Shown piece by piece: positions 27,542 through 51,171 of a stretch of DNA of 64,000 bases. Source of the DNA: Minisyncoccota bacterium. GTDB taxonomy: Bacteria; Patescibacteriota; Minisyncoccia; Phycocordibacterales; GWA1-40-21. The notes under the pieces were generated by a model that was not told the origin of the DNA, made no database searches, and saw only the letters and a program-made list of their open reading frames with translations. Location of the stretch: the NCBI GenBank assembly GCA_041663045.1, contig JBAZRH010000001.1, forward strand, positions 276,403 through 340,402, read 5' to 3'. Both the position numbers and the translations under genes were made by a program. Numbering within the stretch: the first letter of the stretch is position 1; each line of letters starts with the position of its first letter.

Positions 27542-28228
27542 CTAAAAACTTGGTATGGTGAGTGCCACATACTCTATAAGCATTTTGAGAGATGGTGATT
27601 GCTCGCTAGAGTATTGTCTCACTTTTTCTAGAGATTCCAGCACTCGCACAGTATTTTTGTCTTTCAAATTTGCCTTTTTTGCAATTTCAGATTCTAAGGC
27701 ATTGAAAAATTTAACAACCTGAATTTTACTTTCTTCTTCATCAGAAATACTTTCAGCAAGCTTTTTCACTGCATCCATTCTTTCGCCCACGGACATTTTT
27801 AAAAAGCTTTTTGCATTTATTTTACTCAAAGCCGTGACACTTTCATGCTCCACTATCATAAGGCGTGACCTTAGTGTCGGAATAAGTCCGTTTGCTGAAG
27901 GAATAATTATAAAAAAGTGTGTGCCACCGACTGGCTCTTCAAAAAACTTGAGCATTGCATTTTGCGCCTTCTCCGTAATAAAATTCGCCTGCAAAACAAA
28001 AATCTTTTTATCTGAAACTGTCGGGCGATTGTAATGAAGCTCTTTTAGCGTGCGACTATCTTCCGTATCCATCGTGTCATATTCACCATACCAAAAATCA
28101 GGATTGCTATGTATTGAAAATTTAAGTTCCTTTTCAAAAAACTTCTCCAATTCCAAAATCACCTGCTCCGCCTCGCCGACAATGCAATATGCGTGATGTA
28201 AATTTTTGCCTTGGGTGAAAAGATTCAT
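27542..28228 (-). CDS. holB: DNA polymerase III delta' subunit-like clamp-loader protein
   Basis: Short AAA+-like fold (CIVGEAEQVILE..., FFEEP..., IPTLRSR) typical of compact delta' proteins. Confidence 0.6.
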   Translation of the reverse strand: MNLFTQGKNLHHAYCIVGEAEQVILELEKFFEKELKFSIHSNPDFWYGEYDTMDTEDSRTLKELHYNRPTVSDKKIFVLQANFITEKAQNAMLKFFEEPVGGTHFFIIIPSANGLIPTLRSRLMIVEHESVTALSKINAKSFLKMSVGERMDAVKKLAESISDEEESKIQVVKFFNALESEIAKKANLKDKNTVRVLESLEKVRQYSSEQSPSLKMLIEYVALTIPSF

Positions 28229-28321
28229 AGATACATCATAATATAAAAATTAGGTAAAAGAAAACCGCCTCTGCAAGCGCTTAGTTTTCTTTCCGCTTGC
28301 GGACGGTTTCACCAGTTGTCA

Positions 28322-28576
28322 TTACACCAATGGTGGTAGTTGTTTTTTTCTACAATCAAACGCGGCCCATAATGCAACGTAGCCAAAAATCACCATGACT
28401 GTCATGGTCGCACATCCATGAATTTTCTTCATGGCCGCGATCTTATAACCAAAAATCAAATATGCTGTAATGCCGGCCAAAACGTACGAAACAATGAAGG
28501 CAAACAGAGGGCTCAAAACAACCCAAACCAAGACGGCCATTATCATACAGAGCCAGGCCATAATATTTTCTTTCAT
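28322..28576 (-). CDS. Small membrane protein, function unknown
   Basis: 84 aa with three hydrophobic helices. Confidence 0.4.
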   Translation of the reverse strand: MKENIMAWLCMIMAVLVWVVLSPLFAFIVSYVLAGITAYLIFGYKIAAMKKIHGCATMTVMVIFGYVALWAAFDCRKKQLPPLV

Positions 28577-28730
28577 ATTTCTCTCCTTCTTACCAACATT
28601 CGCTTAATTGGCTTTTTAGGCCAAAGTTGTGAGTTAAGCGATAAACTCAAAGTCAAAATCAAAGAACTACTCTAGTATGATAGCATACTTGAGTATAAAA
28701 GTCAAGCATTTGGGTGATTTTGTTAGCTAA

Positions 28731-28888
28731 ACAGCCGAAAGACGGCTTTAGAAAGCCATTTTTCGGCTAGGCGAGCGAGTCGGGTGCTTTTAAAAAGCAT
28801 TGCACAGCGCGACGGCGCGAGCATAGCAAAAAGCCAGCAGGCTTTTATGCGCGGTTTTTAAAAGCACCCGATGAGCGAGCCGTCTTGA
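28731..28888. repeat. Long palindromic intergenic repeat, family C copy 2
   Basis: cagccgaaagacggc...gagcgagccgtcttg outer arms, gggtgcttttaaaaagc / gcggtttttaaaagcaccc inner arms, and the same central gcgcgacggcgcgagca as 25030-25207. Confidence 0.75.
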
Positions 28889-28893
28889 ATTCG

Positions 28894-29907
28894 TTATCTC
28901 TTCGAAATAATACTCTTCTTGTAAGTATCCAAGTGTTCTAACGCAATCCCCGTCCCTTTTGCCACACAGTAAAGAGGATCTTTTGCCACAACAGCTTTCA
29001 CACCAGTGCGTCTGAAAACAAGCTCGGCGAGATTGCGAAGCATTGAAGAACCACCGGTCATAATAATCCCTTTATCAATAATATCGGCAGCGAGCTCCGG
29101 CGGAGTCTCCTGCAATACATCTTTTATCGCTTTTATCATATCTTTGAGTTCTTTGGCGATAGCTTTTACTATTTCATTGGTCTTTATTTCCGTCGAGCGA
29201 GGAAGTCCTGTAAGAAAATCTCTTCCTTTTATAATAAGCGAAAGCTCTTCCTCTACCGGCACAGCACTACCTATTTTTATTTTAATATCTTCTGCAGTTT
29301 TATCTCCTATCGCCAAGTTGAATGTTTTTTTAATATAATCAGCAATCGCAGCATCTATTTTATTGCCCGCACATTTTACAGAAGTTGAAGAGACAATCCC
29401 TCCAAGAGAAATCACGGCGACATCTGTCGTCCCTCCTCCGATATCCACCACCATATGTCCCATCGGCTCATATATAGGAATACCTGCGCCGATAGCTGCA
29501 AGAATCGGCTCTTTCACGACATAAGCATTTTTGGCCCCAGCACGGATAGCCGCTTCCACCACAGCTCTTCTCTCTGTAGATGTAATACCAGCCGGCACAG
29601 AGACCATCACTTCTGGTTTAAAAATATTCCATTTGCCGAGAGCTTTGTCTATAAAATATCGAAGCATCGCTTCGGTCACACGATAGTCGGCGATCACACC
29701 ATCTCTCATCGGACGATATGCAATAATACTATCCGGTGTCTTACCTATCATATTTTTCGCTTTCACACCTACGGCAAGGATTTTATTGTCTTGTTCAGAT
29801 ACAGCGACAACAGACGGCTCAAAAAGGACAACACCTTTCCCCGGCACAAATACGAGAGTATTCGCGGTTCCCAAATCTATACCTAATTTTCTGGTGAAAA
29901 TGGACAT
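28894..29907 (-). CDS. mreB: Second MreB/Mbl-like actin homolog
   Basis: LGIDLGTANTLVF plus the full actin fold. A paralog of the 21966-23036 gene. Confidence 0.85.
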   Translation of the reverse strand: MSIFTRKLGIDLGTANTLVFVPGKGVVLFEPSVVAVSEQDNKILAVGVKAKNMIGKTPDSIIAYRPMRDGVIADYRVTEAMLRYFIDKALGKWNIFKPEVMVSVPAGITSTERRAVVEAAIRAGAKNAYVVKEPILAAIGAGIPIYEPMGHMVVDIGGGTTDVAVISLGGIVSSTSVKCAGNKIDAAIADYIKKTFNLAIGDKTAEDIKIKIGSAVPVEEELSLIIKGRDFLTGLPRSTEIKTNEIVKAIAKELKDMIKAIKDVLQETPPELAADIIDKGIIMTGGSSMLRNLAELVFRRTGVKAVVAKDPLYCVAKGTGIALEHLDTYKKSIISKR

Positions 29908-29972
29908 GCGTTTAGTTATTCATATACTAGCTCTTTTTGGGCTTTTTGCAAATGAAAATTAAATTAGGTGTT

Positions 29973-30002
29973 TTGATTTATTTATAGCATATATGCTATA
30001 AT
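29973..30002 (+). promoter_or_regulatory. Promoter with an embedded perfect 20-bp palindrome (candidate operator for the downstream XRE-HTH)
   Basis: TTGATT - 18 nt - TATAAT. The palindrome TTATAGCATATATGCTATAA (29982-30001) overlaps the -10 element. The ATG at 30009 lies about 7 nt past the -10, giving a leaderless or near-leaderless mRNA. Confidence 0.6.
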
Positions 30003-30008
30003 ATTTTT

Positions 30009-31514
30009 ATGAAAAACAAGCTATCAGAAATCGGCAAGCTCATCACCGAGCTTCGTGAGAGACGCGGTATCACACAATCGGCTTTTGCTGAAAAGCTTGG
30101 CACAACACAAAGCGTAATCGCCCGCATAGAAAGCGGTGAGCAAAATCTAACCACAGAAATGCTTGAGAAAATCGGCGAAGCGCTAAATAAAGAAATCTTT
30201 ACAATATCGAAAGGTGCGATGAATCTTGAAATAGAAGGCGGACACAAACTCTCCGGCTCGGTGATTACAAAAACATCCAAAAACGGTGCGATGGGTATTA
30301 TCTCCGCTTCCCTACTAAACAAAGGTAAAACACTTTTAAAAAATGTGCCAAAAATTGAGGAAGTTTACAGAATGGTAGAAATCTTGGAAAGCATCGGTGT
30401 ATCTATCAGGTGGATTGGAGATGATCTGGAAATCGAGGTCAAGAAAATTGATCTCAAAAAGATAAATAAAGAATCCGCCGAGAAAACCAGAAGTATTATT
30501 ATGCTCATCGGCTCACTTTCACACTTTTTCAAGAAGTTTTCCCTACCACAATCCGGCGGATGCAAGCTCGGCTCGAGGACTGTCACCCCGCATTTTTTCG
30601 CCCTTGAGAATTTCGGTGTAAATATAGTCGCGAAATCAAAAAGTTATGAAATTTCGGCAAGTAAACTTAAGCCCGCAGAATTCGCCCTTTATGAAAGTGG
30701 AGATACCGTCACGGAAAACGCCATAATGACCGCCGCCCTTATCCCAGGGAAATCCGTCATCAAATTCGCCTCCGCCAATTATATGGTGCAAGATCTGTGC
30801 TTTTTCTTGGAAGGGCTTGGTGTAAAAATAGAAGGTATCGGTACGACCACCCTCACTGTGCATGGCGTATCGGAAATAAATAAAAATATTACATACTACC
30901 TCGCCGAAGATCCGATCGACTCAATGTTTTTCATAGCCACAGCAATACTCACAAATTCCTCTATAAAAATAGAACGCTGCCCGATAGATTTTCTTGAAAT
31001 AGAATTGCTAAAACTCAAAAAGATGGGCTTTAAATATAAATTATCAAAAGTCTATAAAGCACTGAACGGTAAGACGAATCTTGTAGACATCACCACTTCC
31101 CCTTCCCGACTCACAGCACTTACCGATAAAATAGAAGCGAGGCCCTTTCCTGGGCTCAATATCGACAACCTGCCTTTCTTCGCAGTCATCGCCACACAAG
31201 CCGTCGGGCAAACTCTCATACACGATTGGGTTTATGAAAAAAGAGCGATTCACTACAAGGAGCTAGACAAGCTCGGTGCCGATACTATTCTCGCCGACCC
31301 GCATAGATTTTATGTAAATGGAAAGACAGATTTGCGACCGACAGAAATAATCTGCCCGCCAGCTCTCCGCCCCGCCGCGATTATTTTGATAGGAATGCTT
31401 GGTGCAAAAGGCAGATCGATTTTGCGAAATGTTTACAGCATAAATCGCGGATATGAAGACATTGTGAAGAGGCTGAATGGTTTGGGAGCGAAGATAAAGA
31501 TGTTGAGGGATTAG
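30009..31514 (+). CDS. murA: XRE-family HTH domain fused to UDP-GlcNAc 1-carboxyvinyltransferase (MurA)
   Basis: The N-terminal 65 aa are an XRE HTH (LRERRGITQSAFAEKLGTTQSVIARIESGEQNLT). The remainder is MurA, with GGHKLSGSVITKTSKNGAMGII, catalytic Cys in GGCKLGSRTVTPH, and C-terminal INRGYEDIVKRLNGLGAKI. Confidence 0.8.
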   Translation: MKNKLSEIGKLITELRERRGITQSAFAEKLGTTQSVIARIESGEQNLTTEMLEKIGEALNKEIFTISKGAMNLEIEGGHKLSGSVITKTSKNGAMGIISASLLNKGKTLLKNVPKIEEVYRMVEILESIGVSIRWIGDDLEIEVKKIDLKKINKESAEKTRSIIMLIGSLSHFFKKFSLPQSGGCKLGSRTVTPHFFALENFGVNIVAKSKSYEISASKLKPAEFALYESGDTVTENAIMTAALIPGKSVIKFASANYMVQDLCFFLEGLGVKIEGIGTTTLTVHGVSEINKNITYYLAEDPIDSMFFIATAILTNSSIKIERCPIDFLEIELLKLKKMGFKYKLSKVYKALNGKTNLVDITTSPSRLTALTDKIEARPFPGLNIDNLPFFAVIATQAVGQTLIHDWVYEKRAIHYKELDKLGADTILADPHRFYVNGKTDLRPTEIICPPALRPAAIILIGMLGAKGRSILRNVYSINRGYEDIVKRLNGLGAKIKMLRD

Positions 31515-31567
31515 AAATGGACAGACGGCGCGTTGCTCGTCTGTCCATAAACAGATGGTCATGTGTT

Positions 31568-31738
31568 TTACTTCTGTGTCAGCCACTCCAAAAACTTTTC
31601 GAAACATTTGACACATATGTGATACTTCTTCACTTCACGACTTGGCGAATCATCCGCCAGTGTTTGGGGTGGAGAAAAAGCTAGACCACCGTAAGCATGC
31701 AGTTCCTCGCCACATTTGTCGCATTTCGGCTTTATCAT
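31568..31738 (-). CDS. Small zinc-ribbon protein (56 aa)
   Basis: MIKPKCDKCGEEL...HICVKCFEKF carries two CxxC pairs. AAGGAG sits 8 nt upstream of the ATG. Not in the ORF track because it is under 60 aa. Confidence 0.45.
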   Translation of the reverse strand: MIKPKCDKCGEELHAYGGLAFSPPQTLADDSPSREVKKYHICVKCFEKFLEWLTQK

Positions 31739-32056
31739 TTTCTGCTCCTTTCTACTCTATTTTAGAATATAGCATCAACCTTTTTCAAAGTAAAGAATTA
31801 AAGTGCAGGTGGCTTTTTTTATTAAAAATGATAGTATCAAAGACCTCTGGGGTGATAGATTAAAGCTATTCAGATTGTCGCGACGGGCACCTCCGATGGT
31901 GCTGGATCTCAAGTGCCAAGTATGTCTTTTTTGGCCACGAATCCTTAATGTGTCGCAAGTGGGAGAAGCTGTAATCCACCTAGACACTGATAACTATCAC
32001 CCTGGGGACCAACCTTGCCCGTGCATTGTGCGCGGGCTTTTCTTTTGCAGGCAAGT

Positions 32057-32085
32057 TTGACAAGAATAATCAGATATGCTAGTAT
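32057..32085 (+). promoter_or_regulatory. Sigma-70-type promoter
   Basis: TTGACA - 17 nt - TAGTAT, about 280 nt upstream of the priA-like ATG. Confidence 0.55.
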
Positions 32086-32361
32086 ATAAAGTAGATAAGT
32101 CGGTGCCTCAATGAATGGGTGTCATTGGGGGCTGAACCCGAACATACCCGAAGTCAAGCTGGGTGCACTTCCATCCCAAACTCAAAAACAGAGTCTAAAG
32201 GAAGCGCAATTGGGAATCAAAGCTGACAACCGTCTTGCATACTATTTTATTTATAATGGAGTGTAGGCGGTTTTTCTTTGGGTGAATTCTGGTGGGCCGA
32301 TTTTTCAACCTCGTTCTGACGGGTTGAAAAATCGGCCCCAATCTGTCATTATGTAACAATA

Positions 32362-34287
32362 ATGAGAGCCCTGGAAGTTATACCCATTTCAAGAGGAATT
32401 TCAAAAGAGACTCTTTCGTATTTTACAGGGAGCGATATTTCTGTAGGTGCTATTGTAAAAGTCCCCCTGAGGAAAAGAGTTATCCCCGCCCTCGTCATCT
32501 CTGTAAGAGAAGTTGAAGATATCAAAAGTGAAATCAAAAGGTCTCCCTTCCCACTGCGAAAAGTTGAAAAGATGAAATCTTTCCACCTGCTTTCAAAAGA
32601 GTTTGTGGAAGCTTCACAAAAAGTCGCAGATTATTATGCCGGTTCCACTGGAGCGGTACTTAGCTCTATCATACCGAAAGTGATTTTCGAAAATGCCGAG
32701 AAAATAAAAGTTCCGCAAGAAATCTCAAATACTGATACAAATATCACCTCTGCAGAAAAATTCGTCATACAATCAAATGACGAAGACAGATACGCACACT
32801 ATAAAAGTATAATCAGGGAAGAGTTTGCCAAAGATTCCTCTGTCTTTTTCTGTTTGCCGACAATTCAAGATATTAAGAAAGCGGTGGAGAAGCTTCAAAA
32901 AGGTATAGAAAAGTATACTTTTATCCTCCACTCCTCCATGGGCAAAAAAGAAATGCTAGAAACGATAAACAAAATACTTGCCGAAGATCATCCTCTTCTC
33001 ATAGTTGCGACTGGTGGTTTTCTCTCGATTCCAAAGACAAAGATAAGCACGATTATTCTCGACAAAGAGAATTCCCGCGCATATAAAACACAAGTCAGAC
33101 CATATATTGATATTAGAAATTTCGCCGAAACACTTGCAAGTAAGATGAGGGCAAAAATAATCTTCGGTGATCTGCTTTTGCGAACAGAAACAATCTGGCG
33201 TTATAAAAATGCTGAACTAGTAGAAATAGCCTCTCTTAAATTTCGTTCGCTTACCACCTCATCTCAAGAGATTGTAGATATGCGATACAAAAAAGAAGAC
33301 ACGGAACCTATCACCCCCTCCAAGCCCGAAGTAAAAAAAGAATTCAAGGTCTTTAGCCCAGAACTTGAAAATAAAATAAAAGAGAGTATAGAAAACAACG
33401 AACATATGTTTATCTTTACTGCTCGTCGTGGTCTCTCGCCTTCCACTCTTTGCGCCGACTGCGGAAATATAGTTAAATGTAATTCCTGCGGAGCACACAA
33501 CGTTCTTCATAAGTCGCCGGCAGAAAATTTCTTTTTGTGTCACAAGTGCGGAGAAAGAAGAAGCGCTTTAGAAAAATGCTCAAACTGTGGTGGTTGGCGA
33601 TTGACTACTCTTGGAATCGGCTCAGAATTGGTGGAAGAAAAGCTAAAAGAAATGTGTCCGAATGCTAAAGTAGTCAGAATTGATTCAGATATGACACCAA
33701 CACATAAGAAAGCAGAAATCGCAGCTGAGAAATTTTATAATTCCCCACAAAGTATTCTCATCGGTACAGAGATGGCACTTCTATATCTTACAGAAAAGAT
33801 AGAAAACTCTGCCGTGGTTTCTATAGATTCTTTTTTCTCTATTCCGGATTTTAGAATAAACGAGAGAATCTTAAACATCCTACTCAAAATGCGGGCAATC
33901 ACTGACAGAAAACTCATAATACAAACTCGCGATGCAACACAGAAAGTCTTTGAATACGCTATCAAAGGAAATCTCGTAGATTTTTATAGAGATGAGTTGG
34001 AAGACAGAAAGGTTCTTCGTTACCCACCTTTTTCAAATCTTATAAAGATTTCAATACTTGGTGCCAAGAATGAAGTGGTGCCTTTTGTGGAGAATTTCCA
34101 AAAAGAAATAGATCCGTATGAAATAGACGTCTTCCCAGCTTTTATACCACAAGCCAAAAACAGATATAGCGTAAATGGAATTATAAAGATACCTCAAGGT
34201 GAATGGCCAAATTCAAAACTTATAGAAAAATTAAAAGCTCTCCCACCAAATTTCTCAGTAAATGTGGATCCAGACTCTCTCATTTAA
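32362..34287 (+). CDS. priA: Primosomal protein N' (PriA) homolog with degenerate ATPase motifs
   Basis: N-terminal 3'-DNA-binding-like region, RecA-like lobes, and a Cys-rich region (CADCGNIVKCNSCGAH...CHKCGE...CSNCGG). Walker A is replaced by QSNDEDRY, and DEEH becomes DKEN. Confidence 0.75.
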   Translation: MRALEVIPISRGISKETLSYFTGSDISVGAIVKVPLRKRVIPALVISVREVEDIKSEIKRSPFPLRKVEKMKSFHLLSKEFVEASQKVADYYAGSTGAVLSSIIPKVIFENAEKIKVPQEISNTDTNITSAEKFVIQSNDEDRYAHYKSIIREEFAKDSSVFFCLPTIQDIKKAVEKLQKGIEKYTFILHSSMGKKEMLETINKILAEDHPLLIVATGGFLSIPKTKISTIILDKENSRAYKTQVRPYIDIRNFAETLASKMRAKIIFGDLLLRTETIWRYKNAELVEIASLKFRSLTTSSQEIVDMRYKKEDTEPITPSKPEVKKEFKVFSPELENKIKESIENNEHMFIFTARRGLSPSTLCADCGNIVKCNSCGAHNVLHKSPAENFFLCHKCGERRSALEKCSNCGGWRLTTLGIGSELVEEKLKEMCPNAKVVRIDSDMTPTHKKAEIAAEKFYNSPQSILIGTEMALLYLTEKIENSAVVSIDSFFSIPDFRINERILNILLKMRAITDRKLIIQTRDATQKVFEYAIKGNLVDFYRDELEDRKVLRYPPFSNLIKISILGAKNEVVPFVENFQKEIDPYEIDVFPAFIPQAKNRYSVNGIIKIPQGEWPNSKLIEKLKALPPNFSVNVDPDSLI

Positions 34288-49170: not shown

Positions 49171-49180
49171 ATACTCAAAT

Positions 49181-49212
49181 CAAAACCGAGCGACTTAAGT
49201 CGCTCGGTTTTG
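49181..49212. terminator. Bidirectional terminator
   Basis: aaaaccgagcgacttaagtcgctcggtttt. Confidence 0.75.
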
Positions 49213-49223
49213 ATTTTATAAAT

Positions 49224-49520
49224 TTACAGACCAAATGTTCCCATTACTAGGTTTATTATTCCTTTCACCGAAAGCATAATAAACATCCCTATTACCCCAT
49301 AAAGCATATGCATTCCGCCCTCTGCTCTTTTTTCTGCACTTTCTGCATTCTTTACGAATCCATATACTCCGTAAAGAAAAACTACAAGTGCCCAAATAAA
49401 CAACAAATATATCGCTGGATTTAGTATTTCAGCTTTGATCTTTGAAAACATTGAGTCAAAACTGGTACCTTCACCAGACATCACATTTGCCGCATAGACT
49501 TTGGTGAACAGAAAATTCAT
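49224..49520 (-). CDS. VirB2/TrbC-pilin-like double-TM mini-protein, paralog 5
   Basis: Two hydrophobic helices separated by the charged loop KNAESAEKRAEGG. Shares the YGVYGFVK and MLYGVIGMFIMLSVKGIINLV signatures with the four upstream paralogs. Confidence 0.55.
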   Translation of the reverse strand: MNFLFTKVYAANVMSGEGTSFDSMFSKIKAEILNPAIYLLFIWALVVFLYGVYGFVKNAESAEKRAEGGMHMLYGVIGMFIMLSVKGIINLVMGTFGL

Positions 49521-49526
49521 TTATTG

Positions 49527-49895
49527 TTAGTAGGTTATAGGTACAATATTTTGAATGCCCGCATCTAATGCACTGGCGCCACGTGTGTTGAAAGTTGATT
49601 GCAAGATATTTACCAATCCCCAGACAGAAACCATGACAAAGATACCAACTATACCATAGATAATCTGTGTCTTTGCAGTTTTCTTTTTGTCTTCATCTCC
49701 AGCAATAGTGTACTGAAAAACCTCCCAAATAAAATAAACAACGGCGATTGCTATAAATAGCGGAACAAGCATAGACAATATTCTAGCTGCCCAAACGATT
49801 AAGCCACTCAATCCCTGACCTGTTGTATATGTTACCTGAGCCAAAGCCATAACTGGCAAAGCAAATGTAACTCCGACTGCTAATACTTTTTTCAT
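49527..49895 (-). CDS. VirB2/TrbC-pilin-like double-TM mini-protein, paralog 4
   Basis: Sec signal peptide (MKKVLAVGVTFALPVMALA), TM1, loop AGDEDKKKTAKTQ, and TM2 IIYGIVGIFVMVSVWGLVNILQSTF. Confidence 0.55.
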   Translation of the reverse strand: MKKVLAVGVTFALPVMALAQVTYTTGQGLSGLIVWAARILSMLVPLFIAIAVVYFIWEVFQYTIAGDEDKKKTAKTQIIYGIVGIFVMVSVWGLVNILQSTFNTRGASALDAGIQNIVPITY

Positions 49896-49995
49896 AATTA
49901 AACTAATTAATAAACTAATAATTCCTAAAAATGACGACCATTTTTAATTAACACTATAATTATAAACCAATCCAGTAAATAGGCAAATGGGTTAT

Positions 49996-50397
49996 CTACA
50001 GCTTTGGGATATTGATATCCGAATTACCAAGCTTAAATGTGTTTTGCAATACCGATACCAATCCCCAGACAGAGACCATGACAAAGATACCAATAATGCC
50101 CCAAAGGATAAACTCCCTACCTGATTGTTTGTCATCACCTTCAGCCCTAATAAACTTAAATACTCCATAAAGAAATACAACAACAGCAAGGGCGACCAAT
50201 AGATATACAACGGGTTTTAATATTCCACCGATAATTATATTATTAATTAATTCTTTAAAATTATGCGGACTAGAAACAGAAGACGTGCCGGCAGCAAAAG
50301 TAGCTGTACTAGAGAGAAAAAGCACTCCCAACACTACCGAAGACAATATATGACTTATCAATTTGGTTTTATTTTTCATCTTATTATTTTGCCACAT
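49996..50397 (-). CDS. VirB2/TrbC-pilin-like double-TM mini-protein, paralog 3
   Basis: Signal peptide, TM1 VFLYGVFKFIRAEGDDKQ, and TM2 ILWGIIGIFVMVSVWGLVSVLQNTF. An alternative start lies at 50379. Confidence 0.55.
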   Translation of the reverse strand: MWQNNKMKNKTKLISHILSSVVLGVLFLSSTATFAAGTSSVSSPHNFKELINNIIIGGILKPVVYLLVALAVVVFLYGVFKFIRAEGDDKQSGREFILWGIIGIFVMVSVWGLVSVLQNTFKLGNSDINIPKL

Positions 50398-50725
50398 TAT
50401 TAATTGTACCAGTAACTATATTTGCTATAAGTTGTGAACCGAGCAAGATAACAATACCAATAATCGTCCATTTAAATGTATCCTTTGCTTTTGTTATCTC
50501 CCCAGGATTACCGCGAGCATCTACAAATAGATATCCAGCATATATTAAAAACATAATACAAATTACAGAACCAATCTCTATTACTACATTTAGGAAACTT
50601 TTTACAGTTCCAATTAAACTATCACTTTTAAGTGGGTTTGTGATTGTTTGACCGTGGGAAATTAATGGTATCAACAAAAGTGAGAAGAGAAAGATCGATG
50701 TGAGATTTATTAAAATTTTTTTCAT
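50384..50725 (-). CDS. VirB2/TrbC-pilin-like double-TM mini-protein, paralog 2
   Basis: Signal peptide, TM1 MFLIYAGYLFVDARGNPGE, and TM2 WTIIGIVILLGSQLIANIV. Confidence 0.5.
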   Translation of the reverse strand: MKKILINLTSIFLFSLLLIPLISHGQTITNPLKSDSLIGTVKSFLNVVIEIGSVICIMFLIYAGYLFVDARGNPGEITKAKDTFKWTIIGIVILLGSQLIANIVTGTINNVAK

Positions 50726-50751
50726 ATGATTATTCTAATTAATATATTATT

Positions 50752-51171
50752 TTATTTCAAGAATTTCAAATAAAGTGAGCTATCCTTGGTCAACCCCTTT
50801 ACTATAGCATATACGATAACCCAGGCACACAACAAAAAGAACAGTCCATAAACACTCTTTTTAAACATTGCCAGAGCTCTTTCCCTTTCTCCAGAATTGT
50901 TTGGATTCAACAAAATTCTCCCCCCTGCAATCGCAAAAGTAACAGTAGCAATAGTCGCAGAAATGCCGATAACCCACTTTATAAAGTTGTCTATCATACT
51001 AACAAAAGCATCAAAATCACATGGGCACTCTGGACTACCATCACATCCGATTATTCCTCCTAACATAACACATTCTATTGGTACAGATTTCGAAGCCGCC
51101 AAGGAGATGGCTGGTACAACAAATATTACTATCGCCAATACACAAAATAGAACTTTCAAATTAAATTTCAT
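50752..51171 (-). CDS. VirB2/TrbC-pilin-like double-TM mini-protein, paralog 1 (Cys-rich N-terminal region)
   Basis: Signal peptide, a CxxxxxxxCxxxxxCxC segment, then TM1, the loop NPNNSGERERA, and TM2. Confidence 0.5.
   Translation of the reverse strand: MKFNLKVLFCVLAIVIFVVPAISLAASKSVPIECVMLGGIIGCDGSPECPCDFDAFVSMIDNFIKWVIGISATIATVTFAIAGGRILLNPNNSGERERALAMFKKSVYGLFFLLCAWVIVYAIVKGLTKDSSLYLKFLK

Follow-up and report, generated by a model that had tools for sequence, protein, structure and literature searches.

A helix-turn-helix-MurA fusion protein and a palindrome in its promoter: a candidate autorepressing enzyme of peptidoglycan synthesis

MurA catalyzes the reaction that first commits precursors to peptidoglycan synthesis and is the target of fosfomycin. 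In the 64,000-nt stretch of Minisyncoccota bacterium DNA analyzed here (assembly GCA_041663045.1, contig JBAZRH010000001.1, positions 276,403 to 340,402; hereafter the window), murA is a single open reading frame (ORF; 30009-31514, + strand, 501 amino acids plus stop) in which an XRE/Cro-C1-type helix-turn-helix (HTH) domain precedes the enzyme, and the promoter in front of it contains a perfect 20-bp palindrome, TTATAGCATATATGCTATAA (29982-30001). Does this enzyme bind the DNA from which it is transcribed, and does it regulate itself in this way? We consider it likely that its product, like BirA or PutA, is enzyme and repressor in one and represses its own gene, with the palindrome as the proposed operator. 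Enzyme-repressor fusions are a known kind of protein; what appears to be new is the HTH-MurA version, for which the comparative support is good.

The HTH-MurA fusion and its distribution

The HTH domain comprises amino acids (aa) 1-63 (30009-30197; recognition region GTTQSVIARIESGEQN) and is joined by a short linker (aa 64-71; 30198-30221) to the MurA (UDP-N-acetylglucosamine, or UDP-GlcNAc, 1-carboxyvinyltransferase) domain (aa 72-501; 30222-31511). In Pfam searches with the 501-aa protein, HTH_3 (PF01381) matched aa 14-63 with an E-value of 1.5e-14, and it scored 57.7 bits on the isolated domain (aa 1-70), identifying an HTH of the XRE type; EPSP_synthase (PF00275), which places the remainder in the MurA family, matched aa 76-489 (E 2.4e-42). 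Among NCBIfam models, the MurA subfamily model NF006873 covered aa 72-499 with 309.8 bits against a cut-off of 297. Scores for the equivalogs TIGR01072 (308.1 vs. 392.7 bits) and NF009470 (214.4 vs. 552 bits) fell below their cut-offs, and the MurA domain therefore belongs to a divergent MurA clade. The best matches in the PDB were all MurA, the top one being 5ujs (E 9e-51, over aa 64-500) and the others weaker. Identity to E. coli MurA is about 25% in an alignment whose E. coli row was entered by hand; in this alignment, all eight catalytic and substrate-binding residues checked are kept (K91, N92, R161, C185, R190, D386, R454 and R480, equivalent to E. coli K22, N23, R91, C115, R120, D305, R371 and R397). 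The Cys of GGCKLGSRTVTPH is Cys185 (codon at 30561-30563), aligned with E. coli Cys115. Judged by these residues, the C-terminal 430 aa form a catalytically complete MurA domain.

An AlphaFold2 (AF2) model built from a multiple sequence alignment of 72 homologs had a mean predicted local distance difference test (pLDDT) score of 88.9 and a predicted template modeling score (pTM) of 0.82. It places four helices in the N-terminal domain (residues 2-18, 23-30, 34-41 and 49-58), predicts a flexible linker (pLDDT <50 for residues 65-68), and gives a confident MurA fold except for the Cys loop (184-189), which is of low confidence. The Cys loop is mobile in solved MurA structures. Across the 72 homologs, the HTH residues Q34, S35, R39, E41, G43, Q45 and N46 are invariant. 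A preliminary description of this DNA, made from the sequence alone, had read the gene as a MurA retaining its catalytic Cys behind an N-terminal XRE-family HTH, and the domain, structure and residue matches agree with it on both counts.

We found that the fusion is real and old. Both Pfam domains are present in 110 of the 120 best database clusters, which are 70-93% identical to the query, and a protein identical to it is recorded at NCBI (MFA6227150.1) from a 428,695-bp contig of a Candidatus Paceibacterota metagenome-assembled genome. A scan of one genome per species confirmed at least 583 relatives, and 80 loci were kept for comparison. Full-length fused copies among them come from Patescibacteria (Paceibacteria, Saccharibacteria and Doudnabacteria) and from Actinomycetota (Streptomyces, Kitasatospora, Actinacidiphila, Nocardioides, Actinopolymorpha and Marinitenerispora), the latter being 52-55% identical to the window protein over residues 1-501; the fusion is present in Nonomuraea as well. 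In all, the single-ORF fusion was seen in hundreds of species genomes from two phyla. The arrangement is thus a widespread family, already deposited in databases but labeled with routine names: the 4,337 members of a single Streptomyces cluster are called "UDP-N-acetylglucosamine 1-carboxyvinyltransferase" in some cases and "helix-turn-helix domain-containing protein" in others.

The fused MurA clade is common to Patescibacteria and Actinomycetota at 52-57% identity, canonical MurA being at about 30-38%. Since Saccharibacteria live on Actinomycetota hosts, horizontal transfer between the two is a possibility.

The palindrome, its promoter and its coupling to the HTH

The promoter consists of a -35-like hexamer TTGATT (29973-29978, + strand), 18 nt, and TATAAT (29997-30002), with 10 of 12 consensus matches and a TG (29994-29995) that makes the -10 region an extended element, TGcTATAAT (29994-30002). 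The palindrome, with its conserved 16-bp core ATAGCATATATGCTAT (29984-29999), fills the spacer between the -35 and -10 hexamers and its right arm overlaps the extended -10 element; it spans -27 to -8 relative to the presumed transcription start. The preliminary description had already noted a perfect 20-bp palindrome overlapping the TATAAT box, and this was confirmed. Its distances needed correction: the palindrome ends 7 nt rather than 8 nt before the ATG, and the start codon is indeed close to the -10 hexamer, at 6 nt (ATTTTT) rather than about 7 nt. When 64 kb were simulated 200 times with a first-order Markov model, 15 of the simulations contained a perfect palindrome of at least 20 bp. 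Taken within the window alone, the palindrome is therefore weakly significant, and because a 20-bp palindrome is not rare in a sequence of this length, the case for an operator rests on conservation.

To assess conservation, we took all 16-mers of 86 loci (613,756 bases in total) and scored them against the motif ATnnCATATnTGnnAT, adding to the score the complementarity of two variable pairs, which gives a maximum of 13; positions scoring 12 or more were taken as sites. In 61 of the 86 loci, the fused gene is preceded by such a site no more than 130 nt upstream of its start, the end of the site being most often 11-12 nt before the ATG. Only four other sites were detected in the whole of the 613,756 bases. 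That in L014 is explained by a mis-assigned start, that in L084 lies at the start of an operon of NUDIX, NTP_transferase and HTH-murA genes, and those in L045 and L049 are second sites in the intergenic region between acnA and murA2. In the 64-kb window, exactly one site reached the threshold, namely the palindrome at 29982-30001. The core of the operator, CATATnTG, is nearly invariant, and the positions flanking it differ between lineages in a compensatory manner, with arms AG/CT in this window and L005 (ATAGCATATATGCTAT), AT/AT in Saccharibacteria and L085 (ATATCATATATGATAT), and CT/AG in Actinomycetota (ATCTCATATCTGAGAT). The two arms thus co-vary and remain complementary.

A candidate second operator at 50804 in the window was rejected as a chance-level match, having three mismatches and lying inside an ORF that resembles a type IV secretion system (T4SS) pilin. 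In the two Streptomyces genomes with a second site (L045 2853-2868 and L049 2854-2869), the operator-like sequence is ATCTCATATCCGAGAT, 117 nt upstream of the main one.

The palindrome is lost where the HTH is lost. The HTH is absent from L081, L207, L208, L209 and L210, whose proteins are 81-85% identical to the query, and from L018, at 66% identity. None of these six loci has a site scoring at least 11 of 13 anywhere, and in those whose upstream region was read the promoter arm alone is left, as TGTTATACT or TGCTATAAT. All six share the mreB-murA-priA synteny of the window. Three further loci were fetched as a prediction test of the coupling between HTH and operator. In P0125, the HTH is degenerate (21% identical, no Pfam match) and the enzyme intact, and the operator is absent (best score 9). 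Both other loci have an intact HTH and an operator at the start, ATATCATATATGATAT in P0129 and ATATCAGATATGATAT in P0201. The HTH and the palindrome are therefore co-conserved and co-lost across phyla, and the homolog search that the preliminary description had proposed for the fusion found fusion and palindrome conserved together, contrary to the lack of conservation in related genomes that it had named as refuting.

Two of the unfused loci (L207 1246-1500 and L210 1126-1500) carry an insertion right after the old murA start, ATGAAT. It is flanked by the inverted repeat CCCGTTAGAGA / TCTCTAACGGG, and in L210 it encodes an 88-aa GIY-YIG protein. It resembles a small mobile element whose arrival duplicated the start.

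We looked for a recognition code by comparing the A/N residue of the recognition helix with the variable operator positions, and no simple correspondence was evident; Actinomycetota and P0230 share NRIE yet differ in their operator arms. In Streptomyces, two other conserved inverted repeats occur upstream of the operator, TGACGGnCCGTCA in a subset that includes L055 and has acnA as the neighbor, and TTGTTCGCATAGTAGTAGAACAA in a subset with other neighbors. They are located at about -67 to -55 before the ATG (for example in L042, L050 and L055) and are also found in L034, L038-L041, L044, L048 and L074. These repeats may be sites for other regulators. A DmdR1 site has been predicted between SCO5998 and SCO5999 (PMC12161575).

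The same 16-mer is used elsewhere. An exact-match scan of metagenomes for ATAGCATATATGCTAT returned at least 120 loci. Only 4 of the 120 matches listed were HTH-murA genes, and the scan was uninformative on the regulon. At least 14 loci among the matches listed, and more by eye, are modules of an XRE gene and a toxin-like partner. Two of three partners scanned are of the Gp49/HigB type (PF05973; E 1.5e-19 and 3.3e-20). The antitoxin is an XRE protein of about 96 aa whose HTH is 45% identical and 71% similar to that of the window protein over 49 residues, with recognition helices GTKQSVISRLE and GTTQSVIARIE that share the pattern T-x-QSVI-x-R-x-E-x-G. Where the site precedes the toxin-antitoxin operon, the promoter has TTGAC(N), a spacer containing the palindrome, TATAnT, and a short or absent leader (in L184, TTGACT, 17 nt with the palindrome, and TATATT), as in the HTH-MurA promoter. 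The occurrence of a related HTH with an identical palindrome in an unrelated context supports the idea that this type of HTH recognizes this sequence. The antitoxins differ from HTH-MurA in that their partner is a separate toxin protein rather than a fused enzyme, and in that many pairs have the site not before the operon but where the toxin and antitoxin genes meet, spanning the toxin stop codon and ending at the antitoxin ATG. There is no toxin gene beside the window HTH-MurA, whose neighbors are mreB and a 56-aa Cys-rich ORF without a Pfam match; Gp49 toxins were seen solely at the unrelated metagenome loci.

Two other groups of metagenome matches were seen. About 45 (within L089-L206; mostly Ga0056131, Ga0056132, Ga0209681 and Ga0209788) belong to a high-copy repeat, ...GACGGACAGAC...GCGCGCT, the 16-mer, CGCGCGCTAAAAA..., in which ATAGCATATATGCTAT is central and no HTH gene is nearby; as a guess, this repeat may come from a eukaryotic host genome. 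In the second group (L087, L099, L109, L112, L133, L154, L161, L173 and L197), two adjacent palindromes, GTAGCATTAATGCAAC and ATAGCATATATGCTAT, stand ahead of a gene family whose sequence starts MSRNPEEPVYNRI.

The HTH-MurA mRNA is probably leaderless. There is no Shine-Dalgarno sequence before the ATG at 30009, and the distance from the -10 hexamer to the ATG is 6-9 nt in most lineages, for example 7 nt after TATACT in L082, 6-7 nt after TAACCT or TACGGT in Streptomyces, and 6 nt after TGTTATACT in the unfused L081. As L001, L003, L010, L011 and L083 have leaders of 20-56 nt, leaderlessness is common in the family and not obligatory. Nor is a leaderless gene exceptional in this organism, in which a Shine-Dalgarno motif precedes 7 of 51 long ORFs and a TATAAT-like hexamer lies 5-8 nt before the ATG in 7 of 51. 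Direct data are available for a probable counterpart, S. coelicolor murA2 (SCO5998), which was mapped as leaderless by differential RNA sequencing (dRNA-seq; Jeong et al., 2016; PMC4895711, Suppl. Dataset 2). SCO5998 spans 6573186-6574715, that is 1530 nt or 509 aa, a length equal to that of the fused Streptomyces proteins (52-53% identical to the window protein over the full length). It is reported to adjoin acnA (SCO5999; PMC12161575), and the fused gene of L055 and L045 likewise has the aconitase gene acnA next to it, in divergent orientation. Because length and synteny match, SCO5998 is probably the counterpart of the fused gene, an equation made on these two grounds rather than by direct sequence comparison. 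The conserved spacing, the lack of a Shine-Dalgarno sequence and the dRNA-seq result support the leaderless transcript that the preliminary description had expected. MurA2 differs from the window gene in being a second copy beside a canonical MurA, SCO2949 (PMC12161575); Paceibacteria probably have no murA besides the fused gene.

Enzyme, repressor, or both

If the fused protein has two functions, relatives that have lost one of them are informative. Seven distant fused paralogs (P0129, P0130, P0138, P0143, P0147, P0201 and P0230; 30-43% identical overall) lack the Cys115 loop GGC(x)LGxR together with R91, R371 or both, and some also lack K22 or R397. Since the anchors flanking the lost loop align well, these proteins are very probably not enzymes. 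Their HTH is more conserved than their MurA part (45-61% vs. 29-42% identity), and all six of those examined keep the operator at their own or their operon promoter. They lie among cell-wall genes: next to a canonical murA-murB pair in divergent orientation, with a mur ligase or ddl gene besides (L082, L085/L086), flanked by a mur ligase gene on either side (L213), near murB together with relA/spoT (L083), or in the NTP-transferase operon (L084). The MurA fold and D305 are kept in these dead paralogs while the residues on the phosphoenolpyruvate (PEP) side are lost. The family thus holds bifunctional, enzyme-only and regulator-only forms, as would be expected if the ancestral protein had two selected functions. 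This pattern also hints that the HTH uses the MurA fold as its sensor. The window gene, and probably Streptomyces MurA2 too, would belong to its bifunctional end. We noticed in addition that the canonical MurA beside the dead paralogs (L082 1058-2416, L085 1124-2440) has Gln at the R371 position and keeps K22, N23, R91, C115, R120, D305 and R397.

We infer that the palindrome is bound by the fused HTH itself, that binding represses, that two copies bind, and that ligands control binding. In this mechanism, two protein copies would occupy the half-sites ATAGCATA|TATGCTAT, and the bound dimer would cover the spacer, the TG of the extended -10 element and part of TATAAT, excluding RNA polymerase. 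Repression is the expected outcome because an operator at -27 to -8 would let the dimer block the contacts of sigma-70 with the extended -10 element. A leaderless mRNA would offer no 5′ UTR for post-transcriptional control. The enzyme by which UDP-GlcNAc is committed to peptidoglycan would thus be under negative autoregulation, a loop that would hold the MurA concentration steady because the protein is its own repressor. By analogy with BirA and PutA, a further layer is probable, in which DNA binding would depend on UDP-GlcNAc, PEP or UDP-N-acetylmuramic acid (UDP-MurNAc) on the MurA domain.

Several points weigh against an autorepressing enzyme. DNA binding and repression are, for the whole family, deduced by comparing sequences. 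Since the extended -10 element coincides with the right arm of the palindrome, this arm is conserved partly as a promoter; the operator argument accordingly rests on the left arm and on the covariation of the arms. About one quarter of the fused loci are under the scoring threshold, although most of these show degenerate versions by eye, and in L002, whose protein is 78% identical, the only palindrome is a different one of 12 bp, TATAAGCTTATA. MurA enzymes generally count as monomers, whereas a palindromic site needs dimerization; the AF2 model, being of a monomer with a predicted flexible linker, speaks to neither dimerization nor docking of the HTH. The one hint of ligand control is that the dead paralogs keep the MurA fold and D305. 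Finally, the lack of a second murA gene holds for the 64-kb window.

Alternatively, the protein may be primarily a metabolite-sensing transcription factor, with the MurA fold as its sensor, a wider cell-wall regulon of which autoregulation would be the visible part, and catalysis secondary or shared with another MurA. This would account for the dead paralogs that keep HTH and operator beside murA-murB, or murB, mur ligase, ddl or NTP-transferase genes, for the operator at the start of the NUDIX operon in L084, for the second sites between acnA and murA2 in L045 and L049, and for the presence of SCO2949 as another, canonical MurA in Streptomyces. However, the window protein retains eight of eight residues checked, its 120 closest relatives are without exception MurA proteins of the same clade (110 of them fused), every site in the 614 kb of related loci adjoins a fused gene or its operon, and no other operator copy is present in the 64 kb, where the match at 50804 falls inside the pilin-like ORF. 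We therefore regard a protein that is mainly a transcription factor as unlikely for the window gene, although a regulon reaching beyond the loci covered here may exist.

A separate XRE protein might also bind the palindrome, or the palindrome might be a mere promoter variant, with the fused HTH doing something else. The use of the 16-mer by stand-alone XRE antitoxins of other organisms and the identity of its right arm with the extended -10 element would fit such a reading. Yet the palindrome tracks an intact fused HTH across lineages and is gone where that domain is missing or degenerate; the left arm, which plays no part in the promoter, nevertheless co-varies with the right arm; and the window has no other XRE gene. 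Given this tracking and the absence of another XRE gene from the window, a separate regulator is improbable.

RodZ binds MreB through an XRE-like HTH in its cytoplasmic part. The RodZ HTH is discussed in PMC9804626. With mreB as the divergent neighbor (28894-29907), the HTH of the fused protein could likewise be a protein-protein module that tethers MurA to MreB, and the palindrome could be incidental. We rejected this reading, which is very unlikely: the RodZ-type model HTH_25 scored 14.8 bits, under its cut-off of 24.6, as against 57.7 for HTH_3; mreB is adjacent in one clade and not in the Saccharibacteria and Actinomycetota loci that have fusion and palindrome; the unfused relatives still have mreB next door; the recognition-helix residues are invariant together with the DNA motif; and, unlike in RodZ, the HTH runs straight into the MurA domain with no membrane segment. 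A sequencing or assembly frameshift joining a separate regulator gene to murA, which the preliminary description had named as what would overturn it, is practically out of the question, since the same single ORF is found in 110 of the 120 nearest clusters, in hundreds of genomes including those of cultured Streptomyces and Nocardioides, and in the independently recorded MFA6227150.1.

The autorepressing HTH-MurA proposed here has well-known parallels. BirA of E. coli is both biotin protein ligase and repressor of the bio operon, with biotinyl-AMP as its proven corepressor and with proven dimerization. Like HTH-MurA, it carries an N-terminal HTH on a metabolic enzyme, and its dimer sits on a palindromic operator overlapping promoter elements; it differs in having a winged HTH and in repressing the bio operon rather than its own gene, whereas HTH-MurA has an XRE-type HTH and its own leaderless promoter as the presumed target. 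PutA, a proline dehydrogenase with a ribbon-helix-helix domain, and NadR, which combines an HTH with an NMN adenylyltransferase, are further such "trigger enzymes." They too unite enzyme and repressor in one polypeptide, and PutA acts at the put control region to repress the gene that encodes it. Their DNA-binding folds, pathways and switching differ (PutA responds through redox state and membrane binding), and none acts in peptidoglycan synthesis. The window gene has the sequence features of a trigger enzyme: its single polypeptide joins a DNA-binding domain to an enzyme that looks active, and a candidate operator lies in a promoter of the same pathway. Known controls of MurA are feedback inhibition by UDP-MurNAc in E. 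coli and, in Firmicutes, ClpCP proteolysis of MurAA via ReoM/IreB and PASTA kinases. The kinase link to MurA control is described in PMC12077105. These controls act on activity or stability through other proteins, whereas the HTH-MurA loop would be transcriptional and contained within the enzyme. In the open-access literature, we found no description of an HTH-MurA fusion, of a DNA-binding MurA, of an HTH or operator of SCO5998, or of these operator sequences.

More broadly, and more tentatively, the MurA fold may have been recruited as the ligand sensor of a widespread XRE transcription factor family that ranges from bifunctional enzyme-repressors to pseudo-enzyme regulators. If so, occupancy of the MurA fold by a UDP-sugar or PEP would be read out as transcription of cell-wall precursor genes, and the relatives would point to a possible new class of UDP-sugar-responsive regulators. 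To our knowledge, an understanding of how MurA levels are set is limited to a small number of model Firmicutes and Proteobacteria, and such a readout would represent an undescribed mode of peptidoglycan control in bacteria of the candidate phyla radiation that may, as a conjecture, lack the known MurA circuits. An operator-binding domain inside the enzyme would amount to a one-gene homeostat, which is attractive for the tiny genomes of Patescibacteria. The fused protein is also a second MurA throughout Streptomyces, and because Streptomyces is genetically tractable and SCO5998 has already been mapped as leaderless, the hypothesis can be tested immediately. The enzyme-only and regulator-only relatives constitute a natural experiment that separates the two functions. 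For annotation, thousands of database entries named as enzyme only or as HTH protein only are both, and some of the distant fused entries are probably not enzymes at all.

Neighborhood of the locus

Upstream of the HTH-MurA gene, mreB (28894-29907, - strand) is a divergent neighbor that we report as context, making no claim as to its regulation by the palindrome; the mreB-murA-priA synteny is confined to the close Paceibacteria clade. Just past the murA stop codon, the sequence can be read as a hairpin with a 9-bp stem, GGACAGACG(10 nt)CGTCTGTCC (31519-31546), which may serve as a terminator both for murA and for the small convergent ORF (31568-31738) that encodes the 56-aa Cys-rich protein. 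Neither a second MurA gene nor a second XRE gene was found in the 64-kb window, and Rfam and tRNA scans of 28000-33000 gave no matches. Between the Cys-rich ORF and priA, 31740-32360 comprises about 620 nt without a convincing ORF, tRNA or Rfam match; at the equivalent position, relatives have almost no gap or a 138-aa gene.

Elsewhere in the window, five tandem genes for small membrane proteins occupy 49224-51171 (- strand). All four of those scanned match T4SS_pilin (PF18895, E 3e-11 to 2e-8) and one also weakly matches TrbC/VirB2, so that the region looks like a paralogous pilin array of a Patescibacteria T4SS. A perfect palindrome of 40 bp (49177-49216), CAAATCAAAACCGAGCGACTTAAGTCGCTCGGTTTTGATTT(T), follows just downstream of the stop codon of ORF 49224-49520 (- strand) and looks like a terminator hairpin.

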